Made by a program: the position numbers and the translations under genes. A model generated the notes under the pieces. It searched no databases. It saw nothing but the letters and a program-made list of their open reading frames with translations, and was not told where the DNA came from. Shown piece after piece: positions 1 to 47,777 of a stretch of DNA of 64,000 bases; the stretch's first letter is position 1, and every line of letters begins with the position of its first letter. Origin of the DNA: Yuukianura sp. NJ FZ-2021 (Eukaryota). The stretch spans positions 124,001 through 188,000 of the forward strand of contig JAJCTO010000015.1 in assembly GCA_046563655.1 (NCBI GenBank), written 5' to 3'.

Positions 1-26
1 ATTTACTAGGGGGAATTGAAAGCACT

Positions 27-15000: not shown

Positions 15001-16546
15001 ATTTTCATAAATAAAGGTAACAAGATGAGGCACGAGACAGCAAGTGAAAGTGGGTTGCTGTAGTACTTTTTATGAGGATTTCAAAAATGTAATTTACTTT
15101 CTGTTCATTCTCACATTTGCATGTTCATTCTCTCAAATTTATGTCGTTTTCACACAATGGTGCTCGGCATTGCTCAATGTGCCGTTTACCAACCCAAGAT
15201 AAACTCCGAGGCAGTGCGGTTCATCCAGACTTTTAAGTTCACTCTAACCAGATTTAATAGCGATCTATCCACGCCAATCAAACTTGGGTTCCTGAAGTAC
15301 TTTTCACGAGGATTTCAGAAAAGCAACTCATTTTCACCCGGCATCGCTCCGAGTGGATGTTCTTGAAACAAATTTTCATAAAGAAAAGTAACGAGATGAG
15401 GGACTACACAGCAAGTGAAAGTGGGCTCCTGTAGCACTTTTTATGAGGATTTCAAAGATGTAGTTGACTTTTACCTAGCATCGTTCCTGAATGCATTTCT
15501 TTTGAATTTTTGTTTTGAAACTTGAATTTTCATAAATAAAGGTAACAAGATGAGGCACGAGACAGCAAGTGAAAGTGGTTCCTGTAACACTTTTTATGAG
15601 GATTTCAAAAATGTAATTTACTTTCTGTTCATTCTCACATTTGCATGTTCATTCTCTCAAATTTATGTCGTTTTCACACAATGGTGCTCGGCATTGCTCA
15701 ATGTGCCGTTTACCAACCCAAGATAAACTCCGAGGCAGTGCGGTTCATCCAGACTTTTAAGTTCACTCTAACCAGATTTAATAGCGATCTATCCACGCCA
15801 ATCAAACTTGGGTTCCTGAAGTACTTTTCACGAGGATTTCAGAAAAGCAACTCATTTTCACCCGGCATCGCTCCGAATGGATGTTCTTGAAACAAATTTT
15901 CATAAAGAAAAGTAACGAGATGAGGGACGACACGGCAAGTGAAAGTGGGTTCCTGTAGCACTTTTTATGAGGATTTCAAAAATGTAATTTACTTTCTGTT
16001 CATTCTCGCATTTGCATGTTCATTCTCTCAAATTTATGTCGTTTTCACACAATGGTGCTCGGCATTGCTCAATGTGCCGTTTACCAACCCAAGATAAACT
16101 CCGAGGCAGTGCGGTTCATCCAGACTTTTAAGTACACTCTAACCAGATTTAATGGCGATCTACCCACGCCAATCAAACTTGGGTTCCTGAAGTACTTTTC
16201 AGGAGGATTTCAGAAAAGTAACTCATTTTCACACGGCATCTCTCCGAGTGGAGGTCCTTGAAACAAATTTTCATAAAGAAAAGTAACGAGATGAGGGACG
16301 ACACGGCAAGTAAAAGTGGGTTCCTGTAGCACTTTTTATGAGGATCTCAAAAATGTAGTTGACTTTTACCTAGCATCGTTCCGGAATGCATTTCTTTTGA
16401 ATTCTTTGTTTTGAAACTTGAATTTTCATAAATAAAGGTAACAAGATGAGGCACGAGACAGCAAGTGAAAGTGGGTTCCTGTAGCACTTTTTATGAGGAT
16501 TTCAAAAATGTAATTTACTTTCTGTTCATTCTCACATTTGCATGTT
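27..16546. repeat. Satellite A array 1: ~36 long units (371/372 bp) and ~19 short units (155 bp), with higher-order repeats
   Basis: Near-identical ORF translations recur at 371/372-bp or ~526-bp (371+155) spacing. The motif GGGTTCCTG(T/A)AG(C/T)ACTTTT repeats throughout. nt 1-26 do not match the unit. Confidence 0.97.
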
Positions 16547-17028
16547 TAATGGCGCATGTCAACCCCGGAATTAAGTATTTGTTTTGCAGAAAAATGGCAC
16601 AAAATGGACGACCAATCATTTCAAATACTTTAGAAGTATTTGTGTTAGTTCGAATCTGCTCTTATAACCATCCTCCTTTTTAGAATCAGTGTTTGCAGGG
16701 TCATTTTGGCGAAAATACAAAGCACACTGAGCCTGAGATTTCTTGAATTCCTTGTTGTAACTCAAAAGATTATCCAAATATGCTCGATAGGCATATTGAT
16801 TAGACGCTCGGGTTATCAATTGTTCATTCAACCAAATCGACACTTGGTTGAACATGGAGTGTAGGGTTTTGTTGACTGTAGTAATCGAATCGGTTGCAGC
16901 AACATTTGTTCCATCCGCCTTTACAACATTGGCTTTGCTGTACAATTTAGTTTCTGCCAAATCAATCCATTGGGAGTCGTTGCTTTTGCAGAAAGAACTC
17001 AATCGGTGAGTTTTGATCAGATGCGACT
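16547..17028 (-). pseudogene. Polinton/Maverick major capsid protein (double jelly-roll, hexon-like) N-terminal fragment, frameshifted
   Basis: Stitching frames gives SDQNSPIEFF / KSNDSQWIDLAETKLYSKANVVKADGTN..VNKTLHSMFNQVSIWLNEQLITRASNQYAYRAYLDNLLSYNKEFKKSQ / SKVFEMIGRPFCAIFLQNKYLIPG(VDMR). This fits recalled Polinton MCP motifs (PIEF, IDL, LHSLFSQV, YPYRAY, GRLH.D...Q.KYL..GVD). Confidence 0.85.
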
Positions 17029-17034
17029 CTGTTC

Positions 17035-17196
17035 TTTATCCTGGATTAATTTCTCTCATATATATATATATATCCAGATAAATCTTGTCCTTATCTTATA
17101 AGTTTTAATATTAATAATTAATAAATATTAAGAATCTTTATATATTAATATAAAATATAATATTTTATATCTTATATAAGATATCTTATATAAGAT
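17035..17196. repeat. AT-rich palindrome/hairpin cluster with a (TA)n run
   Basis: Perfect 28-bp palindrome (ATCTTATATAAGAT)x2 at 17169-17196. 10-bp stem ATATAAAATA-TAA-TATTTTATAT at 17148-17170. Imperfect inverted repeat TTTATC(C)TGGAT..ATCCAGATAAA flanks the (TA)n run. Confidence 0.85.
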
Positions 17197-17316
17197 TATT
17201 ATCTCTAGTCATGACAGCCGAATATCATGCTTGTACTCGTTGTTGGTTACATTTGACCTCTAACTGCTACTGTGTTTTACTTAAGAACACACTAGTTGTC
17301 GCACCTTTGTGTTTAT

Positions 17317-20300
17317 GCAGTGCGGTTCATCCAGACTTTTAAATACACTCTAACCAGATTTAATGGCGATCTATCCACGCCAATCAAACTTGGGTTCCTG
17401 AAGTACTTTTCAGGAGGATTTCAGAAAAGTAACTCATTTTCACACGGCATCTCTCCGAGTGGAGGTTCTTGAAACAAATTTTCATAAAGAAAAGTAACGA
17501 GATGAGGGACGACACGGCAAGTGAAAGTGGGTTCCTGTAGCACTTTTTATGAGGATCTCAAAAATGTAGTTGACTTTTACCTAGCATCGTTCCGGAATGC
17601 ATTTCTTTTGAATTCTTTGTTTTGAAACTTGAATTTTCATAAATAAAGGTAACAAGATGAGGCACGAGACAGCAAGTGAAAGTGGTTCCTGTAACACTTT
17701 TTATGAGGATTTCAAAAATGTAATTTACTTTCTGTTCATTCTCACATTTGCATGTTCATTCTCTCAAATTTATGTCGTTTTCACACAATGGTGCTCGGCA
17801 TTGCTCAATGTGCCGTTTACCAACCCAAGATAAACTCCGAGGCAGTGCGGTTCATCCAGACTTTTAAGTTCACGCTAACCAGATTTAATAGCGATCTATC
17901 CACGCCAATCAAACTTGGGTTCCTGAATTACTTTTCACGAGGATTTCAGAAAAGCAACTCATTTTCACCCGGCATCGCTCCGAGTGGATGTTCTTGAAAC
18001 AAATTTTCATAAAGAAAAGTAACGAGATGAGGGACGACACGGCAAGTGAAAGTGGGTTCCTGTAGCACTTTTTATGAGGATTTCAAAAATGTAATTTACT
18101 TTCTGTTCATTCTCGCATTTGCATGTTCATTCTCTCAAATTTATGTCGTTTTCACACAATGGTGCTCGGCATTGCTCAATGTGCCGTTTACCAACCCAAG
18201 ATAAACTCCGAGGCAGTGCGGTTCATCCAGACTTTTAAGTACACTCTAACCAGATTTAATGGCGATCTATCCACGCCAATCAAACTTGGGTTCCTGAAGT
18301 ACTTTTCAGGAGGATTTCAGAAAAGTAACTCATTTTCACACGGCATCTCTCCGAGTGGAGGTTCTTGAAACAAATTTTCATAAAGAAAAGTAACGAGATG
18401 AGGGAGGACACGGCAAGTGAAAGTGGGTTCCTGTAGCACTTTTTATGAGGATCTCAAAAATGTAGTTGACTTTTACCTAGCATCGTTCCGGAATGCATTT
18501 CTTTTGAATTCTTTGTTTTAAAACTTGAATTTTCATAAATAAAGGTAACAAGATGAGGCACGAGACAGCAAGTGAAAGTGGGTTCCTGTAGCACTTTTTA
18601 TGAGGATTTCAAAAATGTAATTTACTTTCTGTTCATTCTCACATTTGCATGTTCATTCTCTCAAATTTATGTCGTTTTCACACAATGGTGCTCGGCATTG
18701 CTCAATGTGCCGTTTACCAACCCAAGATAAACTCCGAGGCAGTGCGGTTCATCCAGACTTTTATGCTCACTCTAACCAGATTTAATAGCGATCTATCCAC
18801 GCCAATCAAACTTGGGTTCCTGAAGTACTTTTCACGAGGATTTCAGAAAAGCAACTCATTTTCACCCGGCATCTCTCCGCGTGGAGCTTTTCGGATGATT
18901 TCTTTTGAAACAAATTTTCATAAAGAAAAGTAACAATATGAGGTATGACACAGCAAGTGAATGCGGGCTCCTGTAGCAATATTTATGAGGATTTCAAAAA
19001 TGTAATTTACTTTCTGTTCATTCTCGCATTTGCATGTTCATTCTCTCAAATTTATGTCGTTTTCACACAATGGTGCTCGGCATTGCTCAATGTGCCGTTT
19101 ACCAACCCAAGATAAACTCCGAGGCAGTGCGGTTCATCCAGACTTTTAAGTACACTCTAACCAGATTTAATGGCGATCTATCCACGCCAATCAAACTTGG
19201 GTTCCTGAAGTACTTTTCAGGAGGATTTCAGAAAAGCAACTCATTTTCACACGGCATCGCTCCGAGTGGATGTTCTTGAAACAAATTTTCATAAAGAAAA
19301 GTAACGAGATGAGGGACGACACAGCAAGTGAAAGTGGGTTCCTGTAGCACTTTTTATGAGGATCTCAAAAATGTAGTTGACTTTTACCTAGCATCGTTCC
19401 GGAATGCATTTCTTTTGAATTCTTTGTTTTGAAACTTGAATTTTCATAAATAAAGGTAACAAGATGAGGCACGAGACAGCAAGTGAAAGTGGTTCCTGTA
19501 ACACTTTTTATGAGGATTTCAAAAATGTAATTTACTTTCTGTTCATTCTCACATTTGCATGTTCATTCTCTTAAATTTATGTCGTTTTCACACAATGGTG
19601 CTCGGCATTGCTCAATGTGCCGTTTACCAACCCAAGATAAACTCCGAGGCAGTGCGGTTCATCCAGACTTTTAAGTTCACGCTAACCAGATTTAATAGCG
19701 ATCTATCCACGCCAATCAAACTTGGGTTCCTGAATTACTTTTCACGAGGATTTCAGAAAAGGAACTCATTTTCACCCGGCATCGCTCCGAGTGGATGTTC
19801 TTGAAACAAATTTTCATAAAGAAAAGTAACGAGATGAGGGACGACACGGCAAGTGAAAGTGGGTTCCTGTAGCACTTTTTATGAGGATTTCAAAAATGTA
19901 ATTTACTTTCTGTTCATTCTCGCATTTGCATGTTCATTCTCTCAAATTTATGTCGTTTTCACACAATGGTGCTCGGCATTGCTCAATGTGCCGTTTACCA
20001 ACCCAAGATAAACTCCGAGGCAGTGCGGTTCATCCAGACTTTTATGTTCACTCTAACCAGATTTAATAGCGATCTATCCACGCCAATCAAACTTGGGTTC
20101 CTGAAGTACTTTTCACGAGGATTTCAGAAAAGCAACTCATTTTCACCCGGCATCGCTCCGAGTGGATGTTCTTGAAACAAATTTTCATAAAGAAAAGTAA
20201 CGAGATGAGGGACGACACAGCAAGTGAAAGTGGGTTCCTGTAGCACTTTTTATGAGGATCTCAAAAACGTAGTTGACTTTTACCTAGCATCGTTCCAGAA

Positions 20301-20998
20301 TGCATTTCTTTTGAATTCTTTGTTTTGAAACTTGAATTTTCATAAATAAAGGTAACAAGATGAGGCACGAGACAGCAAGTGAAAGTGGGTTCCTGTAGCA
20401 CTTTTTATGAGGATTTCAAAAATGTAATTTAATATCTGTTCATTCTCACATTTGCATGTTCATTCTCTCAAATTTATGTCGTTTTCACACAACGGTGCTC
20501 GGTATTGCTCAATGTGCCGTTTACCAACCCAAGATAAACTCCGAGGCAGTGCGGTTCATCCAGACTTTTATGTTCACTCTAACCAGATTTAATAGCGATC
20601 TATCCACGCCAATCAAACTTGGGTTCCTGAAGTACTTTTCAGGAGGATTTCAGAAAAGCAAATCATTTTCACCCGGCATCGCTCCGAGTGGAGGTTCTTG
20701 AAACAAATTTTCATAAAGAAAAGTAACGAGATGAGGGACGACACGGCAAGTGAAAGTGGGTTCCTGTAGCACTTTTTATGAGGATTTCAAAAATGTAATT
20801 TACTTTCTGTTCATTCTCACATTTGCATGTTCATTCTCTCAAATTTATGTCGTTTTCGACAAAATGGTGCTCGGCATTGCTCAATGTGCCGTTTACCAAC
20901 CCAAGATAAACTCCGAGGCAGTGCGGTTCATCCAGACTTTTAAGTACACTCTAACCAGATTTAATGGCGATCTATCCACGCCAATCAAACTTGGGTTC
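17317..20998. repeat. Satellite A array 2
   Basis: Same 371/372-bp and 155-bp units. Ends at ...CAAACTTGGGTTC, directly abutting gag sequence. Confidence 0.97.
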
Positions 20999-22508
20999 TC
21001 GAGGTCAATTCGAGGTAGGGAGGAGTTTCTCGAGGATTGGTGAACAGGTGGTTCCTTCTTCTTCTTTGGAACTGGAGGTCCTTGAGGGACCTCCTCTTGA
21101 AATGACCCTAAAGCCAAACCAACACCTGATGGACACTGAAACTTACGATGCCCAAAACCATTACACTTGAAGCACTGAACATCACTTAAATCTTGCCTAG
21201 AGGTCTGACCTTGACCTCTGCCTTGACCACCACCACGGTCATTGTCATTTGAAGAACCACGATTACCACGGTAACCGCCCTTCCCACGATGATTCATGTT
21301 GAGGCTGCACTGAATTCTTGTCATAATTGGATTTTGCACTTTGACCTTGTGACTGGTCATTGGGTTGAGATGAGGAATGTCCACTGTTCGAACTTCCATT
21401 ACTTCCACTAGTCGGGGATTGATCACTGGAATAAATCTTGTAGCCATTTCCCTTGCCTTTCCAGTTTCCACGGAAGCCATTATTTTTGGCTTCCTTCCCA
21501 CGAAACCAATTATTCCCATTGGAAGTTCCAGCAGAACTTCCAGCATTTGAATTTGAGGAATTATCATCTTTCTTGACTGACTCTGACTTTGAGTCGACCT
21601 TGACAATTGGAGGTAATCCGAACTTGTTTTTTGTGATTCCGTCTTCTGCCGTTAAATTCGACATGCATCAAAAAGTGATTCCACTGTGTCAAACTGTTGA
21701 GTTCCAAGGGCTGTGCGAATCCTCGGATTCAAGCCTAATTTAGCACGTAGCACTGCATCAGCCACTGACTCATGTGGATAAATTAATCTGGAGCACCGAA
21801 CCACATCATACAAATAAAATTCAACAGACTCGTTGAACTGTTGTCTTCTTGTGTGCAGAAGCCTCGTTCGTTCTGCAATGTCCATCCAATTATCATATCT
21901 GCTGATAAATGCGTCTTTGAATGAATCCCAGTCTGTCACTGTCACTAGGATGTGGTCGAGCCATGGTTGAGGTTCTACTGGCAAGACCGTTTTCACAAGA
22001 TAAAGAAACTGCCTTTGCTCATGTCCTTGAGCAGTGAAGTAACGCTCTACTTCATTTAGGTAGCCTAGCCTGACATCTTCTTAGGATCAAAACTCGGCAC
22101 AGGCAATTTAGATGATAATGATGTGAACTTGATGCTTTTCAATGCTGTTATCAATGCTTGGGTCTGACCAACTGGTTCTGCCTCCGCAGGGGCAGACGTC
22201 ACCGCAGCGACTTCACCGGTCACCCGCTGAACTAATCTCTGCTCCACGCCGCGCACGGCATGGGCCACGGCCTCGGCCACTAACTTATCCACTTCATCCT
22301 TGGTGTATGTCGCCATGGTTACAGATGAACCTGGGGCACTAACGATGATTTTAGGTGATGTAACTGGAGTCGGAATCTTACTGTCTTGACTTCGGAGAAA
22401 CGGTGCTTCCGAATCTGACGTAGGGCTAAGCTCTGGTAGCTTAAATGTCAATGTAGGATCAATTTCCAAATTTTTTAATTCTTTACTTACAGGTTTTCTG
22501 TCTGACAT
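20999..22508 (-). pseudogene. Gag-A, Ty3/gypsy-type Gag (capsid + CCHC knuckle), three frameshifts, 3' end cut by satellite A
   Basis: ORF pieces 22065-22508, 21652-21996, 21263-21664 and 20999-~21290 align in order with Gag-B (ATYTKDEVD, ALITALK.IKFTSLSSKLPVP, GYLNEVERYFTAQGH, RYDNW.D.AERTRLLHTR, LPPIVKV, CFKCNGFGHRKFQC, ALGSFQ). Shifts fall near 22065, 21655 and 21290. Confidence 0.9.
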
Positions 22509-22737
22509 GGAGTGGATCCAGTGGAAGTTGTTTCGGCAACTTCCTCCTTCTATGTACAAGATTAAGAGATGATCCACTTCTGAATTATGGCCACTTTCCT
22601 TTTGACCAAAGGTAACGTCCACTCACGAACAATTACATGATGTCTTGATCCCACTTGACACAGAATAAAAGTTTTTACCACTCACCATGTGTTGTTACGC
22701 CATTGTGACCTTTGACATCAGCAGTAACACTCACAAA

Positions 22738-22747
22738 ACGGTCGCCA
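22738..22747 (-). promoter_or_regulatory. Primer-binding site TGGCGACCGT (tRNA-Arg-like) of the Gag-A unit
   Basis: Lies 2 nt after the LTR-A end (...GCTACA CA TGGCGACCGT). Complementary to a tRNA 3' end ...ACGGUCGCCA, as recalled for insect tRNA-Arg(TCG). Confidence 0.75.
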
Positions 22748-22749
22748 TG

Positions 22750-23085
22750 TGTAGCACCTCGTGCTACGTAAAACTGCCAAAGATGGCCTCCAGACTATCG
22801 ATCCGAGCACTGCCGGACTCATGCAACGAAACTGAGGACCAAAAGGGACACCAAATGAAACAACACGAAGACACGACGACAATAAATATAAAATATATTT
22901 ATTGTACACTATGATACAAAACTTCAGCTCATGCTGAATCGAACACCAAAAACCGACTGACTGGCACAACCAGTCTCTCTCCTCTCTACCACGCTAACTC
23001 TGAAACCGAATCTCGCGCTAAGCGCTAACCAATCTCAACTAAATGCTAAGACTAAACACTAACCTAACACTACTCTAGGGCCACA
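22750..23085 (-). repeat. LTR-A (336 bp)
   Basis: Minus strand runs TGTGGCCCTAGAGTAG...GTAGCACGAGGTGCTACA, with TGT/ACA termini and a minus-strand AATAAA near 22900. A PBS follows and a purine-rich tract precedes it. Confidence 0.8.
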
Positions 23086-23095
23086 CCCTAACCTC
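23086..23095 (-). promoter_or_regulatory. Putative polypurine tract GAGGTTAGGG immediately 5' of LTR-A
   Basis: 8 of 10 bases are purines and the tract abuts the TGT start of LTR-A on the minus strand. It is short and imperfect. Confidence 0.45.
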
Positions 23096-23386
23096 AAGGG
23101 GCAAATGACCCTAACCTAAACGGGGGAACACGGGGCACTTCAACTGAACTTCACAAATCAACATTTTATCCAATATTTTCAAATAATCACACTTCCACAC
23201 ACTTTTTAAATCTTCATTTTTTGAATTTTGAGGGAATACGACCCTTTTTACATAGAATAGCAATGCAGCATTATTTACTTCAAATTCTGAAGCTAGAGTA
23301 ACGCTGCACTTCAGCATCGTGGCCGGGCAAACGTTCTCTGGAGCGATGTCGGAAGATTGAGGCCTCGTTCCCGCACATCTCTCTTT

Positions 23387-23992
23387 TTAGTCTCCTCCAT
23401 TTCCATTTCTCATAAAATTTTTCGCAACACTTTTCACTTCACATTCCACTTCCTTGATCCTCGGAAGTTGGAGATACAGTACCGCCAGTGCACTTAGCCG
23501 AATACTGTCTCCGGGAGAGCCCTGGTCGCAACCATAATCTTCATCGTCTGACGTCACTGTAGTCCATGAAAACGCGTCCGCTGCCATGTACTGCCGGCCA
23601 GTCAGAGGCACTCTCCATATAATTTCTGGATTCATCAATTTCCTTTTCATCATCACTACCACCACTTCCCACCAACAAACTATGTACAAATGATTGGAGC
23701 CGCTAAAACGCGACTCCCAAGGCACTAACACAAAAACAATATTTACAAACACTTCCATTGTTATGAGTGATTCAGAACACTCAACACGAAAAACAGCCAA
23801 AAAATTTAACTTATAACTTGAAGTACCGACAAGTTGAAATTCGTCCAAAAACTGAATTATAATTTGAGAAATGATGGACGAAACGTCATTCCCCACTTTT
23901 AGAATCTTCTGAATCTTCTTCTTCCTCTCCATATTCGCCGTAATCTTCCACGACTTCCTCTGAAATATCCACTTGAAAGGATCCAAGAGCAA
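23387..23992 (-). CDS. Hypothetical 201-aa ORF overlapping the Gag-B 3' end in the +1 frame
   Basis: Open in both copies (201 and 202 aa) despite 9 substitutions and an in-frame 3-bp length change. No recognisable domain and a non-ATG first codon. Confidence 0.2.
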   Translation of the reverse strand: MLLDPFKWIFQRKSWKITANMERKKKIQKILKVGNDVSSIISQIIIQFLDEFQLVGTSSYKLNFLAVFRVECSESLITMEVFVNIVFVLVPWESRFSGSNHLYIVCWWEVVVVMMKRKLMNPEIIWRVPLTGRQYMAADAFSWTTVTSDDEDYGCDQGSPGDSIRLSALAVLYLQLPRIKEVECEVKSVAKNFMRNGNGGD

Positions 23993-25145
23993 AATTCATT
24001 GGCGCAGGACACTGAAACTGCTTGTGGCCACGCCCGCTACATCGCCAGCAATAAATTTCATCTGCATTTCGATACTGATCGCGTCTGGAGCCATTAAAAT
24101 GACTCCTGTTCTCATCTGGAGACACATCCACTTCACTCTGACCTCCACTAGCACTAATTTCTAAGTCATCTCCTTGAGCTTCATCATCATATGTAACTTC
24201 GTCTGCAGTTCCAGAATGATTGGAGCCAACATCATTGACTCCTGTCCCACATGGTTCTTGTTCACCGTCACTCTCCTCCTTTTCACTATCACTTTTTTCA
24301 TTTTTACAACCATTTTCTTCTTCCTCACCATCACTTTCACTATTTACATCCAAATTTACCTTCACAATTGGAGGTAACTGATTTTTTAGTTTGTACAGAT
24401 CATCTTCTGCACATAAATAGGCATGAGCAACCCTGCATGCCACAAATAATTCATCAACTGTAGAAAAACTGGTTGTTCCTAAGGCTGTACGTAGCCTAGG
24501 ATAAAGAGCCAGCCTTGCCCGTAGCACTGAAGCCGCTTCTGACTCATTTGGGTGCACTAACTTGGCACTCCGAACCATTTCATAAATGAATTGTTCCACT
24601 GGTTCCTCCAATTTCTGTAATCTGGTGTGCAGTAGTCTGGTCCTCTCAGCAACATCAATCCAATTATCATAACGATTGATGAACTGCATTTTGAATTCAC
24701 TCCACTGTGTCACTGTACCAAGCACATGCTCCAACCACGGTTGTGATTCACTTGGTAAAACTGTTTTAATTAAGTAAAGAAACTGCTCTGTCGAATGACC
24801 TTGTGCAGTAAAATACCGTTCCACTTCCACTAAATATCCAGCAGCACTCATTTTCTTCATATCAAATTTGGGAACTGGTAATTTTGAACTCAAAGACGTG
24901 AACTTCACATTTTTCAGGGCCGTAATCAGCGCCTCTGTTTGGCCACGTGGTGTGATTGGAGCCCCCGCAGCGACTCCGACGGAACTCGATGCAACTATTT
25001 TTTCCTCCACGCCTCGCAAGGCTTTAGCTACCGCAGCAGCCACTATTCCATCAACTTCTTCTTTGGTGTATGTAGCGATAACCGAATCACTCACTTTTGC
25101 CGGCACTGCACTACTTGGGATGGGAGATGCACTGGGGATAGACAT
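23886..25145 (-). CDS. Gag-B, intact 419-aa Ty3/gypsy-type Gag with capsid domain, acidic linker, one CCHC zinc knuckle and acidic tail
   Basis: Uninterrupted ATG-to-TGA ORF. Retrotransposon-gag-like WSEFKMQFINRY..RLQKLEEPVEQFIYEM and a CX2CX4HX4C knuckle CWRCSGRGHKQFQC. Confidence 0.9.
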   Translation of the reverse strand: MSIPSASPIPSSAVPAKVSDSVIATYTKEEVDGIVAAAVAKALRGVEEKIVASSSVGVAAGAPITPRGQTEALITALKNVKFTSLSSKLPVPKFDMKKMSAAGYLVEVERYFTAQGHSTEQFLYLIKTVLPSESQPWLEHVLGTVTQWSEFKMQFINRYDNWIDVAERTRLLHTRLQKLEEPVEQFIYEMVRSAKLVHPNESEAASVLRARLALYPRLRTALGTTSFSTVDELFVACRVAHAYLCAEDDLYKLKNQLPPIVKVNLDVNSESDGEEEENGCKNEKSDSEKEESDGEQEPCGTGVNDVGSNHSGTADEVTYDDEAQGDDLEISASGGQSEVDVSPDENRSHFNGSRRDQYRNADEIYCWRCSGRGHKQFQCPAPMNFALGSFQVDISEEVVEDYGEYGEEEEDSEDSKSGE

Positions 25146-25457
25146 TTATCCCAACAAAAAAATTCCTCCGCGTCGGCAACTAGATCCTCCTCTAGAACCG
25201 ATACTGATGCTAAATGAACAATTTTTAACTGTACACTTCACTGGTTGTCTTAATTTTGGTCATATGTGACCTTTGACACGATTGGAGCCCACTAGTGGAC
25301 TCCTAAACTGAAATGAGAGCCGTGAAATCGACTCTGTACACTTTTAACGATGCTCAACCGCAGCTGATGCATGAAATTTCACTATTTTTTCAAAATTTTT
25401 GGGTCAAACGCATTTGACCTTTTGTGACCTCACTGACCTTTGGTAGTTGTGACGCGA

Positions 25458-25467
25458 ACGGTCGCCA
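25458..25467 (-). promoter_or_regulatory. Primer-binding site TGGCGACCGT (tRNA-Arg-like) of the Gag-B unit
   Basis: Same 10-mer and same CA spacer after ...GCTACA as in the Gag-A unit. Confidence 0.75.
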
Positions 25468-25469
25468 TG

Positions 25470-25824
25470 TGTAGCGTCCTCGCACCGCTACTCCAATAAA
25501 TATGGCCGCAGCCACGCCCTCAGACTCTCATCATTGATCAGCAGACCCACACAACTCCCAAAAGACCAGAAAACTCACCGAAACTCAAAACCACATCTGT
25601 GGTTAAATATATATCAAATATATTTAATAAACTGATGAAATAATCGATGAAACAAATAAAACTAAATAATCATGGCTGATCTCAAATCTCCACTCTGTCG
25701 TAACACAAAAATCAGACTGATCTCTACTATATACAAAAACCTATCCTCGCTCGCTCCTCGCCTCACTTCAAATCTCCCGCGAGCCACATCCTCATCTCAT
25801 CTTACCCCTACTCTAGTCGCTACA
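25470..25824 (-). repeat. LTR-B (355 bp)
   Basis: 7-bp terminal inverted repeat TGTAGCG...CGCTACA. TATATA near 25730 and minus-strand ATTAAA near 25626. Followed by the PBS. Confidence 0.85.
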
Positions 25825-25850
25825 CTATGCTAACGGATGAGCAGGCGTCT

Positions 25851-28800
25851 CACATTCAATGATATCGGTCAATAAATACCATTATCAGTCACGTCCTGTA
25901 CATGCTGTTTGTATTGAGGCGTATACATTGACGTACCTAAGCAATTTTTTTGAGTGAAACCCACACAGTCTACCGGTGGCGTGCGTATCTTCACCTGGAT
26001 TCTAATCTCTCTGCAACTTTGCTCGTGAAAAAGAACAGTTGTTTGATTCAAAACTTTGTTCATAAAGGTATATTCTTACGATCAGGGTCTAATTTAGCCT
26101 TTGAAGGAATTTCTTGGAATAAGAAGTACACTACAAGTTTTCCTAGGAATTCTGAGCCGTGACAGGCGCTATGTACAAAAGACGAATATAGTTGTTAGGT
26201 CTCAACACCACCGGTAGCAAAGCGAATTACGAAGGCAAATACAGTCCATTGCACACTTTCACTCAATGATATCGGTCACCAAAAACCATCAGCAGTCACG
26301 TCCTTTATATGCTGTTTGTATTGAGGCGTATACATTGAAGTTCCTAAGCAATTTTTTTGAGTGAAACCCACACAGTCTACCGGTGGCAAGCGTATCTTCA
26401 CCTGGATTCTAATCTGTCTGCAACTTTGCTCGTGAAAGAGAACCATTGTTTGATTCAAAACTTTGTTCATAAAGGTATATTCTTACGATCAGGGTCTAAT
26501 TTAGCCTATGAAGGAATTTCTTGGGAATAAGAAGTACACTTCAAGTTTTCCTAGGAATTCTGAGCCGTGACAGGCGCTATGTACAAAAGACGAATATAGT
26601 TGTTAGGTTTCGACACCACCGGTAGCAAAGCGGATTTCGAAAGCAAATACAGTCCGTTGCACACTTTCACTCAATGATATCGCCCACCAAAAACCATTAG
26701 CAGTCACGTCCTGTACATGCTGTTTGTATTGAGGCGTATACATTGACGTTCCTAAGCAATTTTTTTGAGTGAAACCCATACAGTCTACCGGTGGCAAGCG
26801 TATCTTCACCTGGATTCTAATCTGTCTGTAACTTTGCTCGTGAAAGAGAACCACTGTTTGATTCAAAACTTTGATCATAAAGTTTTATTCTTACGATCAG
26901 GGTCTAATTTAGCCTTTGAAGGAATTTCTTGGAATGGGAAGTACACTTCAAGTTTTCCTCGGAATTCTCAGCCGTGACAGGCGACATGAACAAAAGACGA
27001 ATAAAGTTGTTAGGTCTCGACACCACCGGTAGCAAAGCGGATTTGGAAAGCAAATACTGTCCGTTGCACACTTTCACTCAATGATATCGCTCACCAAAAA
27101 CCATTAGCAGTCACGTCCTGTACATGCTGTTTGTATTGTGGCGTATAAATTGACGTTCCTAAGCAATTTTTTTGAGTGAAACCCACACAGTCTACCGGTG
27201 GCAAGCGTATCTTCACCTGGATTCTAATCTGTCTGTAACTTTGCTCGTGAAAAAGAACAGTTGTTTGATTCAAAACTTTGTTCATAAGTCTAACAGTGTT
27301 ATTCTTACCATCAGGTTCTAATTTAGCTTTGAAGGAATTTCTTGGAATGGGAAGAACACTTCAAGTTTTCCTAGGAATTCTTAGCCGTGACAGGCGCTAT
27401 GTACAAAAGACGAATAAAGTTGTTAGGTCTCGACACCACCGGTAGCAAAGCGGATTTGGAAAGCAAATACTGTCCGTTGCACACTTTCACTCAATGATAT
27501 CGGTCACCAAAAACCATTAGCAGTCACGTCCTGTACATGCTGTTTGTATTGAGGCGTATACATTGACGTTCCTAAGCAATTTTTTTGAGTGAAACCCATA
27601 CAGTCTACCGGTGGCAAGCGTATCTTCACCTGGATTCTAATCTGTCTGTAACTTTGCTCGTGAAAAAGAACAGTTGTTTGATTCAAAACTTTGTTCATAA
27701 GTCTAACAGTGTTATTCTTACCATCAGGTTCTAATTTAGCTTTGAAGGAATTTCTTGGAATGGGAAGAACACTTCAAGTTTTCCTAGGAATTCTTAGCCG
27801 TGACACGCGACATGAACAAAAGACGAATATAGTTGTTAGGTCTCAACACCACCGGTAGCAAAGCGGATTACGAAGGCAAATACAGTCCATTGCACACTTT
27901 CACTCAATGATATCGGTCACCAAAAACCATTAGCAGTCACGTCCTGTACATGCTGTTTGTATTGAGGCGTATACATTGACGTTCCTAAGCAATTTTTTTG
28001 AGTGAAACCCATACAGTCTACCGGTGGCAAGCGTATCTTCACCTGGATTCTAATCTGTCTGTAACTTTGCTCGTGAAAAAGAACAGTTGCTTGATTCAAA
28101 ACTTTGTTCATAAGTCTAACAGTTTTATTCTTACCATCAGGTTCTAATTTAGCCTTTGAAGGAATTTCTTGGAATGGGAAGTACACTTCAAGTTTTCCTC
28201 GGAATTCTCAGCCGTGACAGGCGACATGAACAAAAGACGAATAAAGTTGTTAGGTCTCGACACCACCGGTAGCAAAGCGGATTACGAAGGCAAATACAGT
28301 CCATTGCACACTTTCACTCAATGATATCGGTCACCAAAAACCATTAGCAGTCACGTCCTGTACATGCTGTTTGTATTGAGGCGTATACATTGACGTTCCT
28401 AAGCAATTTTTTTGAGTGAAACCCATACAGTCTACCGGTGGCAAGCGTATCTTCACCTGGATTCTAATCTGTCTGTAACTTTGCTCGTGAAAAAGAACAG
28501 TTGTTTGATTCAAAACTTTGTTCATAAGTCTAACAGTGTTATTCTTACCATCAGGTTCTAATTTAGCTTTGAAGGAATTTCTTGGAATGGGAAGAACACT
28601 TCAAGTTTTCCTAGGAATTCTTAGCCGTGACACGCGACATGAACAAAAGACGAATATAGTTGTTAGGTCTCAACACCACCGGTAGCAAAGCGGATTACGA
28701 AGGCAAATACAGTCCATTGCACACTTTCACTCAATGATATCGGTCACCAAAAACCATTAGCAGTCACGTCCTGTACATGCTGTTTGTATTGAGGCGTATA

Positions 28801-31800
28801 CATTGACGTTCCTAAGCAATTTTTTGAGTGAAACCCATACAGTCTACCGGTGGCAAGCGTATCTTCACCTGGATTCTAATCTGTCTGTAACTTTGCTCGT
28901 GAAAAAGAACAGTTGTTTGATTCAAAACTTTGTTCATAAGTCTAACAGTGTTATTCTTACCATCAGGTTCTAATTTACCTTTGAAGGAATTTCTTGGAAT
29001 GGGAAGAACACTTCAAGTTTTCCTAGGAATTCTTAGCCGTGACAGGCGCTATGTACAAAAGACGAATATAGTTGTTAGGTCTCAACACCACCGGTAGCAA
29101 AGCGGATTACGAAGGCAAATACAGTCCGTTGCACACTTTCACTCAATGATATCGGTCACCAAAAACCATTAGCAGTCACGTCCTGTACATGCTGTTTGTA
29201 TTGAGGCGTATACATTGACGTTCCTAAGCAATTTTTTTGAGTGAAACCCACACAGTCTACCCGTGGCAAGCGTATCTTCACCTGGATTCTAATCTGTCTG
29301 TAACTTTGCTCGTGAAAAAGAACAGTTGTTTGATTCAAAACTTTGTTCATAAGTCTAACAGTTTTATTCTTACCATCAGGTTCTAATTTAGCCTTTGAAG
29401 GAATTTCTTGGAATGGGAAGTACACTTCAAGTTTTCCTCGGAATTCTCAGCCGTGACACGCGACATGAACAAAAGACGAATAAAGTTGTTAGGTCTCGAC
29501 ACCACCGGTAGCAAAGCGGATTACGAAGGCAAATACAGTCCATTGCACACTTTCACTCAATGATATCGGTCACCAAAAACCATTAGCAGTCACGTCCTGT
29601 ACATGCTGTTTGTATTGAGGCGTATACATTGACGTTCCTAAGCAATTTTTTTGAGTGAAACCCATACAGTCTACCCGTGGCAAGCGTATCTTCACCTGGA
29701 TTCTAATCTGTCTGTAACTTTGCTCGTGAAAAAGAACAGTTGTTTGATTCAAAACTTTGTTCATAAGTCTAACAGTGTTATTCTTACCATCAGGTTCTAA
29801 TTTAGCTTTGAAGGAATTTCTTGGAATGGGAAGAACACTTCAAGTTTTCCTCGGAATTCTCAGCCGTGACACGCGACATGAACAAAAGACGAATAAAGTT
29901 GTTAGGTCTCGACACCACCGGTAGCAAAGCGGATTACGAAGGCAAATACAGTCCATTGCACACTTTCACTCAATGATATCGGTCACCAAAAACCATTAGC
30001 AGTCACGTCCTGTACATGCTGTTTGTATTGAGGCGTATACATTGACGTTCCTAAGCAATTTTTTGAGTGAAACCCACACAGTCTACCCGTGGCAAGCGTA
30101 TCTTCACCTGGATTCTAATCTGTCTGTAACTTTGCTCGTGAAAAAGAACAGTTGTTTGATTCAAAACTTTGTTCATAAGTCTAACAGTTTTATTCTTACC
30201 ATCAGGTTCTAATTTAGCCTTTGAAGGAATTTCTTGGAATGGGAAGTACACTTCAAGTTTTCCTCGGAATTCTCAGCCGTGACACGCGACATGAACAAAA
30301 GACGAATAAAGTTGTTAGGTCTCGACACCACCGGTAGCAAAGCGGATTACGAAGGCAAATACAGTCCATTGCACACTTTCACTCAATGATATCGGTCACC
30401 AAAAACCATTAGCAGTCACGTCCTGTACATGCTGTTTGTATTGAGGCGTATACATTGACGTTCCTAAGCAATTTTTTTGAGTGAAACCCATACAGTCTAC
30501 CCGTGGCAAGCGTATCTTCACCTGGATTCTAATCTGTCTGTAACTTTGCTCGTGAAAAAGAACAGTTGTTTGATTCAAAACTTTGTTCATAAGTCTAACA
30601 GTGTTATTCTTACCATCAGGTTCTAATTTAGCTTTGAAGGAATTTCTTGGAATGGGAAGAACACTTCAAGTTTTCCTCGGAATTCTCAGCCGTGACACGC
30701 GACATGAACAAAAGACGAATAAAGTTGTTAGGTCTCGACACCACCGGTAGCAAAGCGGATTACGAAGGCAAATACAGTCCATTGCACACTTTCACTCAAT
30801 GATATCGGTCACCAAAAACCATTAGCAGTCACGTCCTGTACATGCTGTTTGTATTGAGGCGTATACATTGACGTTCCTAAGCAATTTTTTTGAGTGAAAC
30901 CCATACAGTCTACCGGTGGCAAGCGTATCTTCACCTGGATTCTAATCTGTCTGTAACTTTGCTCGTGAAGGAGAACCACCGTTTGATTCAAAACTTTGAT
31001 CATAAAGTTTTATTCTTACGATCAGGGTCTAATTTAGCCTTTGAAGGAATTTCTTGGAATGGGAAGTACACTTCAAGTTTTCCTCGGAATTCTCAGCCGT
31101 GACAGGCGATATGTACAAAAGACGAATATAGTTGTTAGGTCTCAACACCACCGGTAGCAAAGCGGATTTCGAAAGCAAATACAGTCCGTTGCACACTTTC
31201 ACTCAATGATATCTCTCACCAAAAACCATTAGCAGTCACGTCCTGTACATGCTGTTTGTATTGAGGCGTATACATTGACGTTCCTAAGCAATTTTTTTGA
31301 GTGAAACCCACACAGTCTACCCGTGGCAAGCGTATCTTCACCTGGATTCTAATCTGTCTGTAACTTTGCTCGTGAAAAAGAACAGTTGTTTGATTCAAAA
31401 CTTTGTTCATAAGTCTAACAGTTTTATTCTTACCATCAGGTTCTAATTTAGCCTTTGAAGGAATTTCTTGGAATGGGAAGTACACTTCAAGTTTTCCTCG
31501 GAATTCTCAGCCGTGACACGCGACATGAACAAAAGACGAATAAAGTTGTTAGGTCTCGACACCACCGGTAGCAAAGCGGATTACGAAGGCAAATACAGTC
31601 CATTGCACACTTTCACTCAATGATATCGGTCACCAAAAACCATTAGCAGTCACGTCCTGTACATGCTGTTTGTATTGAGGCGTATACATTGACGTTCCTA
31701 AGCAATTTTTTTGAGTGAAACCCATACAGTCTACCCGTGGCAAGCGTATCTTCACCTGGATTCTAATCTGTCTGTAACTTTGCTCGTGAAAAAGAACAGT

Positions 31801-34800
31801 TGTTTGATTCAAAACTTTGTTCATAAGTCTAACAGTGTTATTCTTACCATCAGGTTCTAATTTAGCTTTGAAGGAATTTCTTGGAATGGGAAGAACACTT
31901 CAAGTTTTCCTCGGAATTCTCAGCCGTGACACGCGACATGAACAAAAGACGAATAAAGTTGTTAGGTCTCGACACCACCGGTAGCAAAGCGGATTACGAA
32001 GGCAAATACAGTCCATTGCACACTTTCACTCAATGATATCGGTCACCAAAAACCATTAGCAGTCACGTCCTGTACATGCTGTTTGTATTGAGGCGTATAC
32101 ATTGACGTTCCTAAGCAATTTTTTTGAGTGAAACCCGTACAGTCTACCCGTGGCAAGCGTATCTTCACCTGGATTCTAATCTGTCTGTAACTTTGCTCGT
32201 GAAAAAGAACAGTTGTTTGATTCAAAACTTTGTTCATAAGTCTAACAGTGTTATTCTTACCATCAGGTTCTAATTTAGCTTTGAAGGAATTTCTTGAAAT
32301 GGGAAGAACACTTCAAGTTTTCCTAGGAATTCTTAGCCGTGACACGCGACATGAACAAAAGACGAATATAGTTGTTAGGTCTCAACACCACCGGTAGCAA
32401 AGCGGATTACGAAGGCAAATACAGTCCATTGCACACTTTCACTCAATGATATCGGTCACCAAAAACCATTAGCAGTCACGTCCTGTACATGCTGTTTGTA
32501 TTGAGGCGTATACATTGACGTTCCTAAGCAATTTTTTGAGTGAAACCCATACAGTCTACCGGTGGCAAGCGTATCTTCACCTGGATTCTAATCTGTCTGT
32601 AACTTTGCTCGTGAAAAAGAACAGTTGTTTGATTCAAAACTTTGTTCATAAGTCTAACAGTTTTATTCTTACCATCAGGTTCTAATTTAGCCTTTGAAGG
32701 AATTTCTTGGAATGGGAAGTACACTTCAAGTTTTCCTCGGAATTCTCAGCCGTGACAGGCGACATGAACAAAAGACGAATAAAGTTGTTAGGTCTCGACA
32801 CCACCGGTAGCAAAGCGGATTACGAAGGCAAATACAGTCCATTGCACACTTTCACTCAATGATATCGGTCACCAAAAACCATTAGCAGTCACGTCCTGTA
32901 CATGCTGTTTGTATTGAGGCGTATACATTGACGTTCCTAAGCAATTTTTTTGAGTGAAACCCATACAGTCTACCGGTGGCAAGCGTATCTTCACCTGGAT
33001 TCTAATCTGTCTGTAACTTTACTCGTGAAAAAGAACAGTTGTTTGATTCAAAACTTTGTTCATAAGTCTAACAGTGTTATTCTTACCATCAGGTTCTAAT
33101 TTAGCTTTGAAGGAATTTCTTGGAATGGGAAGAACACTTCAAGTTTTCCTAGGAATTCTTAGCCGTGACACGCGACATGAACAAAAGACGAATATAGTTG
33201 TTAGGTCTCAACACCACCGGTAGCAAAGCGGATTACGAAGGCAAATACAGTCCATTGCACACTTTCACTCAATGATATCGGTCACCAAAAACCATTAGCA
33301 GTCATGTCCTGTACATGCTGTTTGTATTGAGGCGTATACATTGACGTTCCTAAGCAATTTTTTGAGTGAAACCCATACAGTCTACCGGTGGCAAGCGTAT
33401 CTTCACCTGGATTCTAATCTGTCTGTAACTTTGCTCGTGAAAAAGAACAGTTGTTTGATTCAAAACTTTGTTCATAAGTCTAACAGTGTTATTCTTACCA
33501 TCAGGTTCTAATTTACCTTTGAAGGAATTTCTTGGAATGGGAAGAACACTTCAAGTTTTCCTAGGAATTCTTAGCCGTGACAGGCGCTATGTACAAAAGA
33601 CGAATATAGTTGTTAGGTCTCAACACCACCGGTAGCAAAGCGGATTACGAAGGCAAATACAGTCCATTGCACACTTTCACTCAATGATATCGGTCACCAA
33701 AAACCATTAGCAGTCACGTCCTGTACATGCTGTTTGTATTGAGGCGTATACATTGACGTTCCTAAGCAATTTTTTTGAGTGAAACCCATACAGTCTACCG
33801 GTGGCAAGCGTATCTTCACCTGGATTCTAATCTGTCTGTAACTTTGCTCGTGAAAAAGAACAGTTGTTTGATTCAAAACTTTGTTCACAAGTCTAACAGT
33901 TTTATTCTTACCATCAGGTTCTAATTTAGCCTTTGAAGGAATTTCTTGGAATGGGAAGTACACTTCAAGTTTTCCTAGGAATTCTGAGCCGTGACACGCG
34001 ACATGAACAAAAGACGAATATAGTTGTTAGGTCTCAACACCACCGGTAGCAAAGCGGATTTCGAAAGCAAATACAGTCCGTTGCACACTTTCACTCAATG
34101 ATATCGGTCACCAAAAACCATTTGCAGTCACGTCCTTTATATGCTGTTTGTAGTGAGGCGTATACATTGACGTTCCTAAGCAATTTTTTGAGTGAAACCC
34201 ACACAGTCTACCGGTGGCAAGCGTATCTTCACCTGGATTCTAATCTGTCTGTAACTTTTCTCGTGAAAGAGAACCACTGTTTGATTCAAAACTTTGTTCA
34301 TAAAGTTTTATTCTTAGGATCAGGGTCTAATTTAGCCTTTGAAGGAATTTCTTGGAATGGGAAGTACACTTCAAGTTTTCCTAGGAATTCTTAGCCGTGA
34401 CAGGCGCTATGTACAAAAGACGAATATAGTTGTTAGGTCTCAACACCACCGGTAGCAAAGCGGATTACGAAGGCAAATACAGTCCATTGCACACTTTCAC
34501 TCAATGATATCGGTCACCAAAAACCATTAGCAGTCACGTCCTGTACATGCTGTTTGTATTGAGGCGTATACATTGACGTTCCTAAGCAATTTTTTTGAGT
34601 GAAACCCATACAGTCTACCGGTGGCAAGCGTATCTTCACCTGGATTCTAATCTGTCTGTAACTTTGCTCGTGAAAAAGAACAGTTGTTTGATTCAAAACT
34701 TTGTTCACAAGTCTAACAGTTTTATTCTTACCATCAGGTTCTAATTTAGCCTTTGAAGGAATTTCTTGGAATGGGAAGTACACTTCAAGTTTTCCTAGGA

Positions 34801-37800: not shown

Positions 37801-38339
37801 ACCAAAAACCATTAGCAGTCACGTCCTGTACATGCTGTTTGTATTGTGGCGTATAAATTGACGTTCCTAAGCAATTTTTTTTGAGTGAAACCCACACAGT
37901 CTACCGGTGGCAAGTGTATCTTCACCTGGATTCTAATCTGTCTGTAACTTTGCTCGTGAAAGAGAACCACTGTTTGATTCAAAACTTTGATCATAAAGTT
38001 TTATTCTTACGATCAGGGTCTAATTTAGCCTCTGAAGGAATTTCTTGGAATGGGAAGTACACTTCAAGTTTTCCTAGGAATTCTGAGCCGTGACAGGCGC
38101 TATGTACAAAAGACGAATATAGTTGTTAGGTCTCAACACCACCGGTAGCAAAGCGGATTACGAAGGCAAATACAGTCCATTGCACACTTTCACTCAATGA
38201 TATCGGTCACCAAAAACCATTAGCAGTCACGTCCTGTACATGCTGTTTGTATTGAGGCGTATACATTGACGTTCCTAAGCAATTTTTTTGAGTGAAACCC
38301 ATACAGTCTACCGGTGGCAAGCGTATCTTCACCTGGATT
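25851..38339. repeat. Satellite B array 1: ~30 units of 407/413/414 bp
   Basis: Spurious ORFs recur every 407-414 bp. Units contain TCAATGATATCGGTCACCAAAAACC, CTACCGGTGGCAAGCG and CCACCGGTAGCAAAGCGG. Confidence 0.97.
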
Positions 38340-38340
38340 T

Positions 38341-38483
38341 CTTTGTTTTAAAACTTGAATTTTCATAAATAAAGGTAACAAGATGAGGCACGAGACAGCA
38401 AGTGAAAGTGGGTTCCTGTAGCACTTTTTATGAGGATTTCAAAAATGTAATTTACTTTCTGTTCATTCTCACATTTGCATGTT
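38341..38483. repeat. Satellite A fragment joined directly to satellite B
   Basis: ...CACCTGGATT|T|CTTTGTTTTAAAACTTG..., followed by the end of a short unit and the start of a long unit. Confidence 0.9.
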
Positions 38484-44430: not shown

Positions 44431-44671
44431 GGAGTGGATCCAGTGGAAGTTGTTTCGGCAACTTCCTCCTTCTATGTACAAGATTAAGAGATGATCCACT
44501 TCTGAATTATGGCCACTTTCCTTTTGACCAAAGGTAACGTCCACTCACGAACAATTACATGATGTCTTGATCCCACTTGACACAGAATAAAAGTTTTTAC
44601 CACTCACCATGTGTTGTTACGCCATTGTGACCTTTGACATCAGCAGTAACACTCACAAAACGGTCGCCATG

Positions 44672-47751: not shown

Positions 47752-47777
47752 CTACACTAACGGATGAGCAGGCGTCT

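Follow-up and report, generated by a model that had tools for sequence, protein, structure and literature searches.

Gag-only LTR retrotransposons, named TR-GAG, have been described in plants as elements shorter than 4 kb with similarity to GAG only; their copies, each with a matched pair of LTRs and with direct repeats of 5 bp, are dispersed at different sites (Chaparro et al. 2015, PMC4350172). A 3.07-kb segment at positions 22750-25824 of a 64,000-nt stretch of contig JAJCTO010000015.1 from Yuukianura sp. NJ FZ-2021 raises the question of whether such elements also occur outside plants. An earlier note had read this segment, on the minus strand, as a single unit of that kind. We analyzed the segment together with its surroundings, and refer to the whole 64,000-nt stretch as the window.

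The reading that we favor, and consider likely, is that the 3.07-kb "unit" is a composite in which the 5' part of a Ty3/gypsy-type element (element 1) lies against the 5' part of an element from a sister lineage (element 2). Element 1 would contribute LTR-B, a PBS, a leader, an intact gag (gag1), and a 0.8-kb tail; element 2 would contribute LTR-A as its 5' LTR, its own PBS and leader, and a frameshifted gag (gag2) that is cut by satellite-1. The coordinates of all features are given in Table 1.

Table 1. Features of the locus and of its second copy, in positions of the window.
Feature	Positions	Strand	Remarks
LTR-B	25470..25824	-	5' LTR of element 1, 355 nt; from sequence and homology to LTR-A
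PBS-like 11-mer TGGCGACCGTT, element 1	25457..25467	-	2-nt spacer CA after LTR-B
Leader 1	25146..25456	-	three sense-strand AAAGGTCA motifs
gag1	23886..25145	-	intact ATG-to-stop ORF, 419 aa; from ORF list, relatives, and capsid model
ORF2	23387..23995	-	stop-to-stop open frame, 202 codons; +1 frame relative to gag1
Post-gag tail (mid800)	23086..23885	-	~800 bp; no recognizable pol; ends in GAGGTTAGGG
PPT-like GAGGTTAGGG	23095 to 23086	-	end of post-gag tail, exactly at LTR-A boundary
LTR-A	22750..23085	-	336 nt; read as 5' LTR of element 2, not 3' LTR of element 1
PBS-like 11-mer, element 2	22737..22747	-	identical to element 1 TGGCGACCGTT; same spacer after LTR-A
gag2	20999..22508	-	degenerate second gag; tblastn pieces in frames -3, -2, -1, -2
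Copy 2 of composite	42922..47751	-	segmental duplicate
Copy 2 LTR-B'	about 47751 to 47395	-	99.7% identical to LTR-B
Copy 2 gag1'	47070 to 45812	-	split between two frames, frameshift near codon 49
Copy 2 tail	45811 to 45008	-	
Copy 2 LTR-A'	45007 to 44672	-	
Copy 2 gag2'	44430 to 42922	-	
Satellite-1 arrays	1..20998	.	371/372-bp unit with 155-bp insert; adjoin gag2
Satellite-2 array	25853..38339	.	413-bp unit, ~30 copies; upstream of LTR-B
Macro-repeat	16399..60277	.	~21.94 kb, 2 tandem copies (16399-38339 vs 38336-60277)

The gag1 gene and its relatives

The intact 419-aa gag reported earlier was confirmed, with an open frame from 25145 to 23886 in copy 1. Its product has a helical region at the N-terminus, followed by a two-lobed capsid of the Arc/Ty3 type at approximately residues 100-260 and by an acidic linker that is disordered. 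A single CCHC knuckle (C-x2-C-x4-H-x4-C, residues 366-379) comes next, and the stop lies 40 residues beyond it. A search of the protein collection identified 190 relatives at E<=1e-3, the closest public protein being 50% identical overall and 58% identical in the capsid core. The family profile (A1) matched the Arc capsid 6gse across both lobes (E=4e-15). In the AF2 model of gag1, pLDDT was >94 for approximately residues 100-260, and Foldseek returned the Arc and dArc1 capsids as top matches with a probability of 1.00; whole capsid domains had target-normalized TM scores of 0.44-0.56, and the N-lobe scored 0.79-0.84.

All Pfam scores of gag1 were under the curated cut-offs (zf-CCHC, 12.1 bits vs 20.8), and its relatives bear Retrotrans_gag or Ty3_capsid. 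A pol-type domain was found in 3 of the 20 relatives scanned (P0122, P0130, and P0055). In the Atlas, gag1 matched nothing more specific than generic clusters of Retrotrans_gag, Ty3_capsid, and zf-CCHC. A pattern search of genome contigs, in a collection without eukaryotic genomes, gave 118 pattern matches, none of them a relative. Most relatives share a conserved C-terminus ending in D-L-N just past the knuckle, which would be typical of gag ORFs that precede a frameshifted pol; this ending is absent from gag1. The gene is of the Ty3/gypsy, Arc-like capsid type. It resembles the Gag of Ty3/gypsy elements (Metaviridae), including Arc and dArc, in its two-lobed capsid and single CCHC knuckle, but differs from them in having no linked pol (PR-RT-RH-IN), in its Pfam scores below cut-off, and in its distance from the nearest known protein.

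The LTR blocks probably belong to different units

Both LTR blocks that the earlier note had paired are present and homologous, with TG..CA ends on each. LTR-B starts with TGTAGCG and ends with CGCTACA, so that its termini form an inverted repeat that is perfect over 7 nt, and it contains ATTAAA (25628 to 25623) followed by a GT-rich stretch; LTR-A contains AATAAA (22903 to 22898) within a short palindrome. Alignment of LTR-B with LTR-A gave 235 matches in approximately 401 columns (58.6%), and BLAST gave 62.6% identity over 195 nt. This homology was above chance, with a score of 49 compared to a mean of 16 and a maximum of 30 among 200 shuffles (z=7.8).

The two LTRs of a retroelement are identical at the time of insertion. 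Since these two match in only 58.6% of columns, even though gag1 is intact and the two copies of the whole block are only 0.6% apart, we read them as derived from two elements and not as the pair of one. LTR-A is also followed by its own spacer, PBS, and gag2, which indicates that it stands at the head of another unit and is not the end of element 1. No target-site duplication of 22750-25824 was found, the sequence upstream of LTR-B being ...CATAG and that after LTR-A being the spacer and PBS. With dissimilar LTRs, a PBS and gag2 behind LTR-A, and no such duplication, the segment did not hold up as one retrotransposed unit.

The LTR ends and the PBS-like 11-mer, in contrast to the pairing, were found conserved in both units. 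The 11-mer starts with TGG and may resemble tRNA-Arg-type PBSs; ARAGORN detected 0 tRNA genes in the window. A 19-nt block formed by the LTR end and the PBS is identical in both units (22755 to 22737 in element 2), and a 17-nt LTR start is conserved between LTR-B and LTR-A, both blocks being surrounded by poorly alignable sequence. We take this pattern as a sign that both lineages were under selection for reverse transcription and integration. The two leaders are alignable only at the PBS and a TGTCAAAGGTCACA block, and sense-strand AAAGGTCA motifs are conserved in both. The proposed PPT-like tract is indeed purine-rich and located at the LTR-A boundary, but it is weak: its 8 purines of 10 are equalled by 559 of 4817 10-mers on the same strand (11.6%). 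Transcription of gag1 from LTR-B is probably still possible, with polyadenylation at the AATAAA of LTR-A and a capsid-type protein as product.

Divergence of gag1 and gag2

The second gag has at least 3 frame changes and is terminated by satellite-1 at 42 residues past its CCHC knuckle, for which the zf-CCHC Pfam score was 20.8 bits (cut-off 20.8). The capsid cores of gag1 and gag2 are 65% identical in amino acids. Over 295 codons, pS was 0.74 (saturated) and pN was 0.286, with omega at approximately 0.11. Gag1 and gag2 thus represent old lineages that separated long ago, and each has been under purifying selection for a long time.

Low omega between stand-alone capsid-type ORFs without pol is also a property of domesticated gag genes, of which Arc, PNMA, and RTL/SIRH are known examples. 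Gag1 and gag2 could on this account be capsid genes domesticated by the host, like Arc, PNMA, or RTL, and form a pair of tandem paralogues with the LTRs as promoters, and the intact capsid domain with its high-confidence model and the AAAGGTCA motifs kept in both leaders would agree with it. However, a host gene would have no use for the PBS and the LTR termini, and these are conserved; frameshifts are present in 3 of the 4 gag copies of the window, and the locus is surrounded by satellite DNA, a heterochromatin-like setting. Saturated synonymous sites together with retained retroelement signals fit two transposing lineages better, and we consider domestication very improbable.

The composite was multiplied as DNA within satellite arrays

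The window contains a second copy of the composite. Copies 1 and 2 were 99.39% identical over 6206 columns that include both satellite junctions, and 38 of 5010 columns differed; gag2' has an extra single-base gap. Intact copies number 1 of 2 for gag1 and 0 of 2 for gag2. Since copies 1 and 2 share both junctions, they have one insertion history; copy 2, the sole other copy in the window, is a segmental duplication and not a separate insertion.

The duplicated unit is much larger than the composite. The macro-repeat copies were 98.1% identical over 22000 columns, and in each the composite of both elements (4.85 kb) lies between 3.7 kb of satellite-1 and 12.5 kb of satellite-2; each also holds a junction piece. 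A satellite-1 monomer is sharply broken at 20998/20999, where gag2 ends, and 28 nt (25825-25852) separate LTR-B from satellite-2. Satellite-1 is also broken at approximately 16399-17317 by a copy of the junction piece. Multiplication of the composite thus took place as DNA, and both junctions with the satellites were copied along with it in a tandem macro-repeat of 21.9 kb.

We also considered whether the satellites or the junction piece were derived from the elements. Local alignment scores were 14-19 compared to shuffle maxima of 16-18, and there were no BLAST matches; without such similarity, the elements are not a visible source of the satellites. Four ORF pieces of the junction segment had no match in Pfam. 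The only Rfam match in 20500-26500 was osmY, which was sub-threshold (24.7 bits vs a gathering score of 46.9) and was taken as chance.

For the composite reading, we infer the following order of events. An adjacent or nested insertion would have placed the two elements head to tail, their 3' parts would then have been lost, and the block would have been copied afterwards by unequal crossing-over in the satellite region.

The differences between copies are not evenly spread. Copy 2 has a patch in gag1 of 9 nt within 114 bp, of which 5 changes are nonsynonymous (all conservative) and 4 synonymous, and the tails differ by 10 substitutions and a 3-nt insertion within 112 bp. These patches fit the existence of other copies, approximately 8-11% diverged. 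The earlier note had taken the clustered conservative variants as a hint of other family members under constraint; the clustering agrees with diverged copies, but the ratio of 5:4 is indistinguishable from neutrality.

The tail beyond gag1 and ORF2

The absence of pol from the ~800 bp after gag was verified. Pfam searches of 11 stop-to-stop pieces of 23885 to 23086 gave no pol family at E<=10, and thus no sign of a protease, RT, RNase H, or integrase. Over the whole window, tblastn with P0122, P0130, and P0055, which have pol-type Pfam matches, and with P0128, a triple gag, matched gag only and revealed no pol. The tail itself matched only itself and copy 2 within the window.

This stretch nevertheless has a feature of its own: it contains most of a 202-codon open frame, ORF2, which overlaps the final 36 codons of gag1. 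Its length is beyond chance, as none of 5000 dinucleotide shuffles reached 202 codons in the forward frames, and its frame is weakly favored by codon usage. No homologue was found in Pfam, in the protein collection (86 candidates, 0 at E<=0.01), or in the Atlas. The length of ORF2 suggests that the tail is native to the element and formerly coded for protein, and that it is not random flank.

The tail might alternatively be a heavily degraded start of pol, such as a protease remnant, element 1 then being an ordinary gag-pol element cut within pol. ORF2 starts at the place expected for pol, on the strand of gag1 and across its end, and its length exceeds chance. In BLASTP against P0130, which bears pol, the best segment of ORF2 lies within the protease region of that protein. 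That match had an E value of 0.35 in a single comparison, however, and the ORF2 translation has no D-[ST]-G motif, no Pfam protease family at E<=10, and neither a homologue nor an Atlas match; its AF2 model (mean pLDDT 49.9) is unreliable. A piece of pol as young as the intact gag1 should remain recognizable. We consider a pol remnant a very improbable account of the tail.

Several features of this region are not readily accommodated by a composite. Gag1 is intact and evidently young, yet the 800 bp behind it hold no trace of pol, so that a simple truncation would need a breakpoint nearly at the gag stop. The sequence of gag2 is lost at nearly the same relative place (42 vs 40 residues past the knuckle). 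These two end-point coincidences fit elements whose coding part natively ends at gag. ORF2 with its beyond-chance length, the variant patch in the tail, and the purine-rich tract exactly at the LTR-A boundary likewise sit less easily with a composite.

Discussion

The main alternative to a composite is that element 1 belongs to a non-autonomous, TR-GAG-like family that encodes Gag only, perhaps with ORF2, and obtains Pol from autonomous relatives with the same PBS and LTR ends; the member seen here would have lost its 3' LTR or joined a relative. The segment is similar to the plant elements in size (3075 bp, within the <4 kb definition), in its order of an LTR, a PBS-like 11-mer, a single gag ORF, a tail that is non-coding, a tract rich in purines, and an LTR, and in having no similarity to AP, RT, RNase H, or IN; it differs from them in LTRs that are only 58.6% matched, in having no target-site duplication, and in a second copy that is segmental only. 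The 800 bp without pol after an intact gag1, the similar end points of gag1 and gag2, the length of ORF2, the conserved LTR termini and PBS, and the diverged copies implied by the gag1 and tail patches all agree with such a family. In contrast, no second LTR-B, target-site duplication, or independent insertion is seen in the window, where the sole other copy is the segmental duplicate, and the substitutions in the gag1 patch are not distinguishable from neutral ones. The nearest public relatives are just 50-58% identical, and most of them have the D-L-N ending, read as that of a gag before a frameshifted pol, which gag1 is without. We judge membership in such a family to be unlikely, though more probable than domestication or a pol remnant. 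Its extension to a non-plant lineage with a capsid gene, possibly a +1-frame ORF2, and LTR ends and a PBS like those of the autonomous relatives that lend it Pol, with gag2 as a second such lineage, is more doubtful still. Full-text term searches of a limited literature turned up only work on a brown alga for TR-GAG outside plants, and no animal gag-only LTR family surfaced in them.

The composite reading has familiar parallels. Satellite and macrosatellite arrays are known to capture fragments of retrotransposons, which are then amplified within them. The locus is like these cases in its truncated composite, its sharp satellite breaks, and its 21.9-kb tandem copying, and differs from them in that one gag ORF is intact and the satellites are unlike the elements. 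At this locus gag1 is a decaying relic, and neither a proven mobile unit nor a demonstrated new mobile family.

As found, the locus is a routine case of truncated retroelement pieces trapped in satellite DNA and amplified with it. It also carries a caution, in that LTR-gag-LTR patterns need matched LTRs and target-site duplications before an element is called. If dispersed gag-only copies exist, the parasitism on a parasite typified by TR-GAG would extend beyond plants, ORF2 and the conserved leader motifs would be worth study, and a natural capsid-only retroelement would be available for the study of trans-complementation. Were the TR-GAG-like lineage reading true, gag-only elements would have persisted for long and diversified under purifying selection.

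The LTRs and the two gag units

The gag-bearing segment of the window carries LTR-B followed by gag1, an intact 419-aa gene and apparently the "Gag-B" of the earlier note, and then LTR-A followed by gag2, a degenerate gene. LTR-B with gag1 and the tail is termed element 1, and LTR-A with gag2 element 2. The segment 20999-25852 had a GC skew of about -0.2, the sense strand being G-rich.

Features of the composite and of the surrounding repeats
Feature	Position or length	Strand	Remarks
LTR-B	25824->25470	minus	perfect terminal inverted repeat TGTAGCG...CGCTACA
Spacer CA, then PBS-like TGGCGACCGTT	25467->25457	minus	3' of LTR-B
Element 1 leader	311 nt	minus	between PBS-like 11-mer and gag1
gag1	25145->23886	minus	intact ORF, 419 aa
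ORF2	23995->23387	minus	open for 202 codons between stops; within the tail and gag1 end, in +1 frame to gag1
Tail	23885->23086	minus	800 bp, 3' of gag1
LTR-A	23085->22750	minus	3' of tail
Second PBS-like 11-mer and spacer	22747->22737	minus	3' of LTR-A; same as in element 1
Element 2 leader	228 nt	minus	5' of gag2
gag2	22508->20999	minus	readable only piecewise, four frame segments
Satellite-1	371/372 bp		repeat unit, plus 155-bp insert
Satellite-2	413 bp		repeat unit
Satellite-2/satellite-1 junction piece	38340-39254		counterpart at about 16399-17317

LTR-B and LTR-A were homologous: their global alignment scored 49, and 200 shuffles averaged 16 and peaked at 30 (z = 7.8). Identity was found at 235 of about 401 columns (58.6%) in that alignment and reached 62.6% across 195 nt by BLAST. 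Conservation lay mainly in the first 17 nt, an AT-rich block with ATTAAA or AATAAA, and the last 8 nt, which together with the spacer and PBS formed an identical 19-mer in both units. The AT-rich block was the best-conserved internal part of both LTRs; in LTR-A, AATAAA sits inside a short AT-rich palindrome (22879-22905; 27 nt, 88.9% self-complementary by BLAST). Because the two LTRs of a newly inserted element are identical, gag1 is intact, and the copies of the block differ by only 0.6%, LTR-A cannot be the 3' partner of LTR-B, and we read it as the 5' LTR that heads a second element. No target-site duplication flanked 22750-25824, and the PPT-like tract had 8 of 10 purines, a value equaled by 11.6% of same-strand 10-mers. 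The proposal that 22750-25824 is one LTR unit was not upheld.

The leaders could be aligned only at the PBS and one TGTCAAAGGTCACA block. The motif AAAGGTCA occurred 9 times in the window, 8 of them on the sense strand within the two leaders (25267-25441 and 22706-22713; 47194-47368 and 44628-44635 in copy 2). The motif resembles a nuclear-receptor half-site, but a role in packaging or dimerisation is just as possible.

Satellite setting and duplication

Two satellites make up most of the window. The unique segment, 4.85 kb, sits between them and resembled neither in sequence comparison; satellite-1 breaks off sharply within one monomer at 20998/20999, and satellite-2 similarity begins at 25853, with 28 unassigned nt between it and LTR-B. 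Since 16399-38339 aligns to 38336-60277 (tandem, about 21.94 kb each, 98.1% identity over 22000 columns), the segment is part of a 21.9-kb tandem macro-repeat, each copy of which contains the junction piece, satellite-1, the gag composite, and satellite-2. Positions 1-16398 are satellite-1 alone, and satellite-2 continues beyond 60277. In the junction piece, a fragment of satellite-1 and a palindromic, AT-rich tract accompany about 750 bp of unique sequence, whose short open frames (e.g., 38557-38769, minus strand) had no Pfam match. An 81-codon ATG ORF that recurs with the satellite-1 unit (19930-20175 and 20456-20701, plus strand) was taken as a by-product of the repeat.

The region 20001-26200, both satellite junctions included, recurs at 41924-48127 with 99.39% identity (6206 columns). 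Copies 1 and 2 of the composite differed at 38 of 5010 columns, with clusters in LTR-A (4 in 21 bp), the tail (13 columns in 112 bp), and gag1 (9 in 114 bp). The gag1 patch held 5 nonsynonymous (F227Y, E232D, Y243N, L253F, L265V) and 4 synonymous changes. Such clusters resemble the outcome of gene conversion by copies of greater divergence located elsewhere. They lend modest support to the suggestion that other family members exist. The N:S ratio was indistinguishable from neutrality. In copy 2, a single-base gap near codon 49 shifts the gag1 frame and gag2 has one further single-base gap, leaving 1 of 4 gag copies in the window intact.

Search for pol and ORF2

Four relatives, P0122, P0130, and P0055 (with pol-type Pfam hits) and P0128 (a triple gag), were run by tblastn against the whole window and aligned to nothing but gag, and no pol family was found by Pfam at E<=10 in 11 stop-to-stop pieces of 22669-23995, both strands. 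These results bear out the earlier observation that no pol follows gag.

ORF2 overlaps the last 36 codons of gag1. A length of 202 codons was reached in 0 of 5000 dinucleotide shuffles in forward frames (maximum 192) and in 27 of 5000 when six frames were counted; 166 codons were reached in 5 of 5000. Codon usage trained on gag1 slightly favored the ORF2 frame (-0.0004 bits per codon vs -0.08 and -0.13); for the core of gag2 the values were 0.059 vs -0.13 and -0.09. No relatives of ORF2 were found in Pfam, sequence search, or Atlas, the D-[ST]-G motif was absent, the sole alignment with a protease had E=0.35, and the structural model was unreliable. The frame is also uninterrupted in copy 2, where ORF2 differs by 10 substitutions and an in-frame 3-nt insertion; the changes are mostly non-conservative.

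Element 1 may still belong to a gag-only family, as had been proposed. Pol is missing after a young, intact gag1, and the gag2 end point parallels that of gag1 (satellite-1 cuts in 42 residues past the CCHC knuckle of gag2; gag1 stops 40 residues past its own). ORF2 and the variant patch in the tail point the same way. The TR-GAG criteria that indicate mobility are a matched LTR pair, a target-site duplication, and copies at different sites (PMC4350172), and none of the three was found here. The evidence best supports a composite of two Ty3/gypsy-type elements, both 3'-truncated and arranged head to tail, that lies within satellite DNA and was multiplied by segmental duplication.

The gag proteins and the two lineages

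Pfam matches of gag1 were all under curated cut-offs (Arc_capsid_dom, E=0.0037; Retrotrans_gag; zf-CCHC). Exhaustive search returned 190 relatives at E<=1e-3, of which 118 passed E<=1e-10 and 22 passed E<=1e-30; the top match shared 50% identity. Word-indexed searches returned one relative 31% identical and two that were 58% and 55% identical within the capsid core. Among 20 relatives scanned, 13 had Retrotrans_gag at E<=0.01 (7 of these above cut-off) and 3 had any pol-type domain. A profile built from gag1 and 27 relatives matched knuckles of retroviral nucleocapsids as well as the capsid of Arc (6gse, E=4e-15). The AF2 model of gag1 had pLDDT >94 at about residues 100-260, with Arc and dArc1 capsids as best fold matches.

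The N-terminal motif "MS.R..KEL" was present in gag2 and several relatives and absent from gag1; relative to gag2, the start of gag1 is set back by about 44 residues (25145-25000 vs 22508-22376, minus strand). Most aligned relatives (alignment A1, P0001-P0030) end in "...D-L-N" just past the CCHC knuckle, sometimes with up to 7 further residues, and we suspect that this conserved C-terminus may mark a conserved recoding site 5' of pol. The gag1 C-terminus is without it, and gag2 is cut at that point.

Over 295 alignable codons, gag1 and gag2 had pS of 0.74 (saturated), pN of 0.286, and omega of about 0.11, a value only approximate because dS is saturated. Taken together with the LTR divergence, this synonymous saturation indicates that the two units, LTR-B with gag1 and LTR-A with gag2, belong to lineages that separated long ago. 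Both have long been constrained in gag, LTR ends, and PBS, as transposing elements would be.
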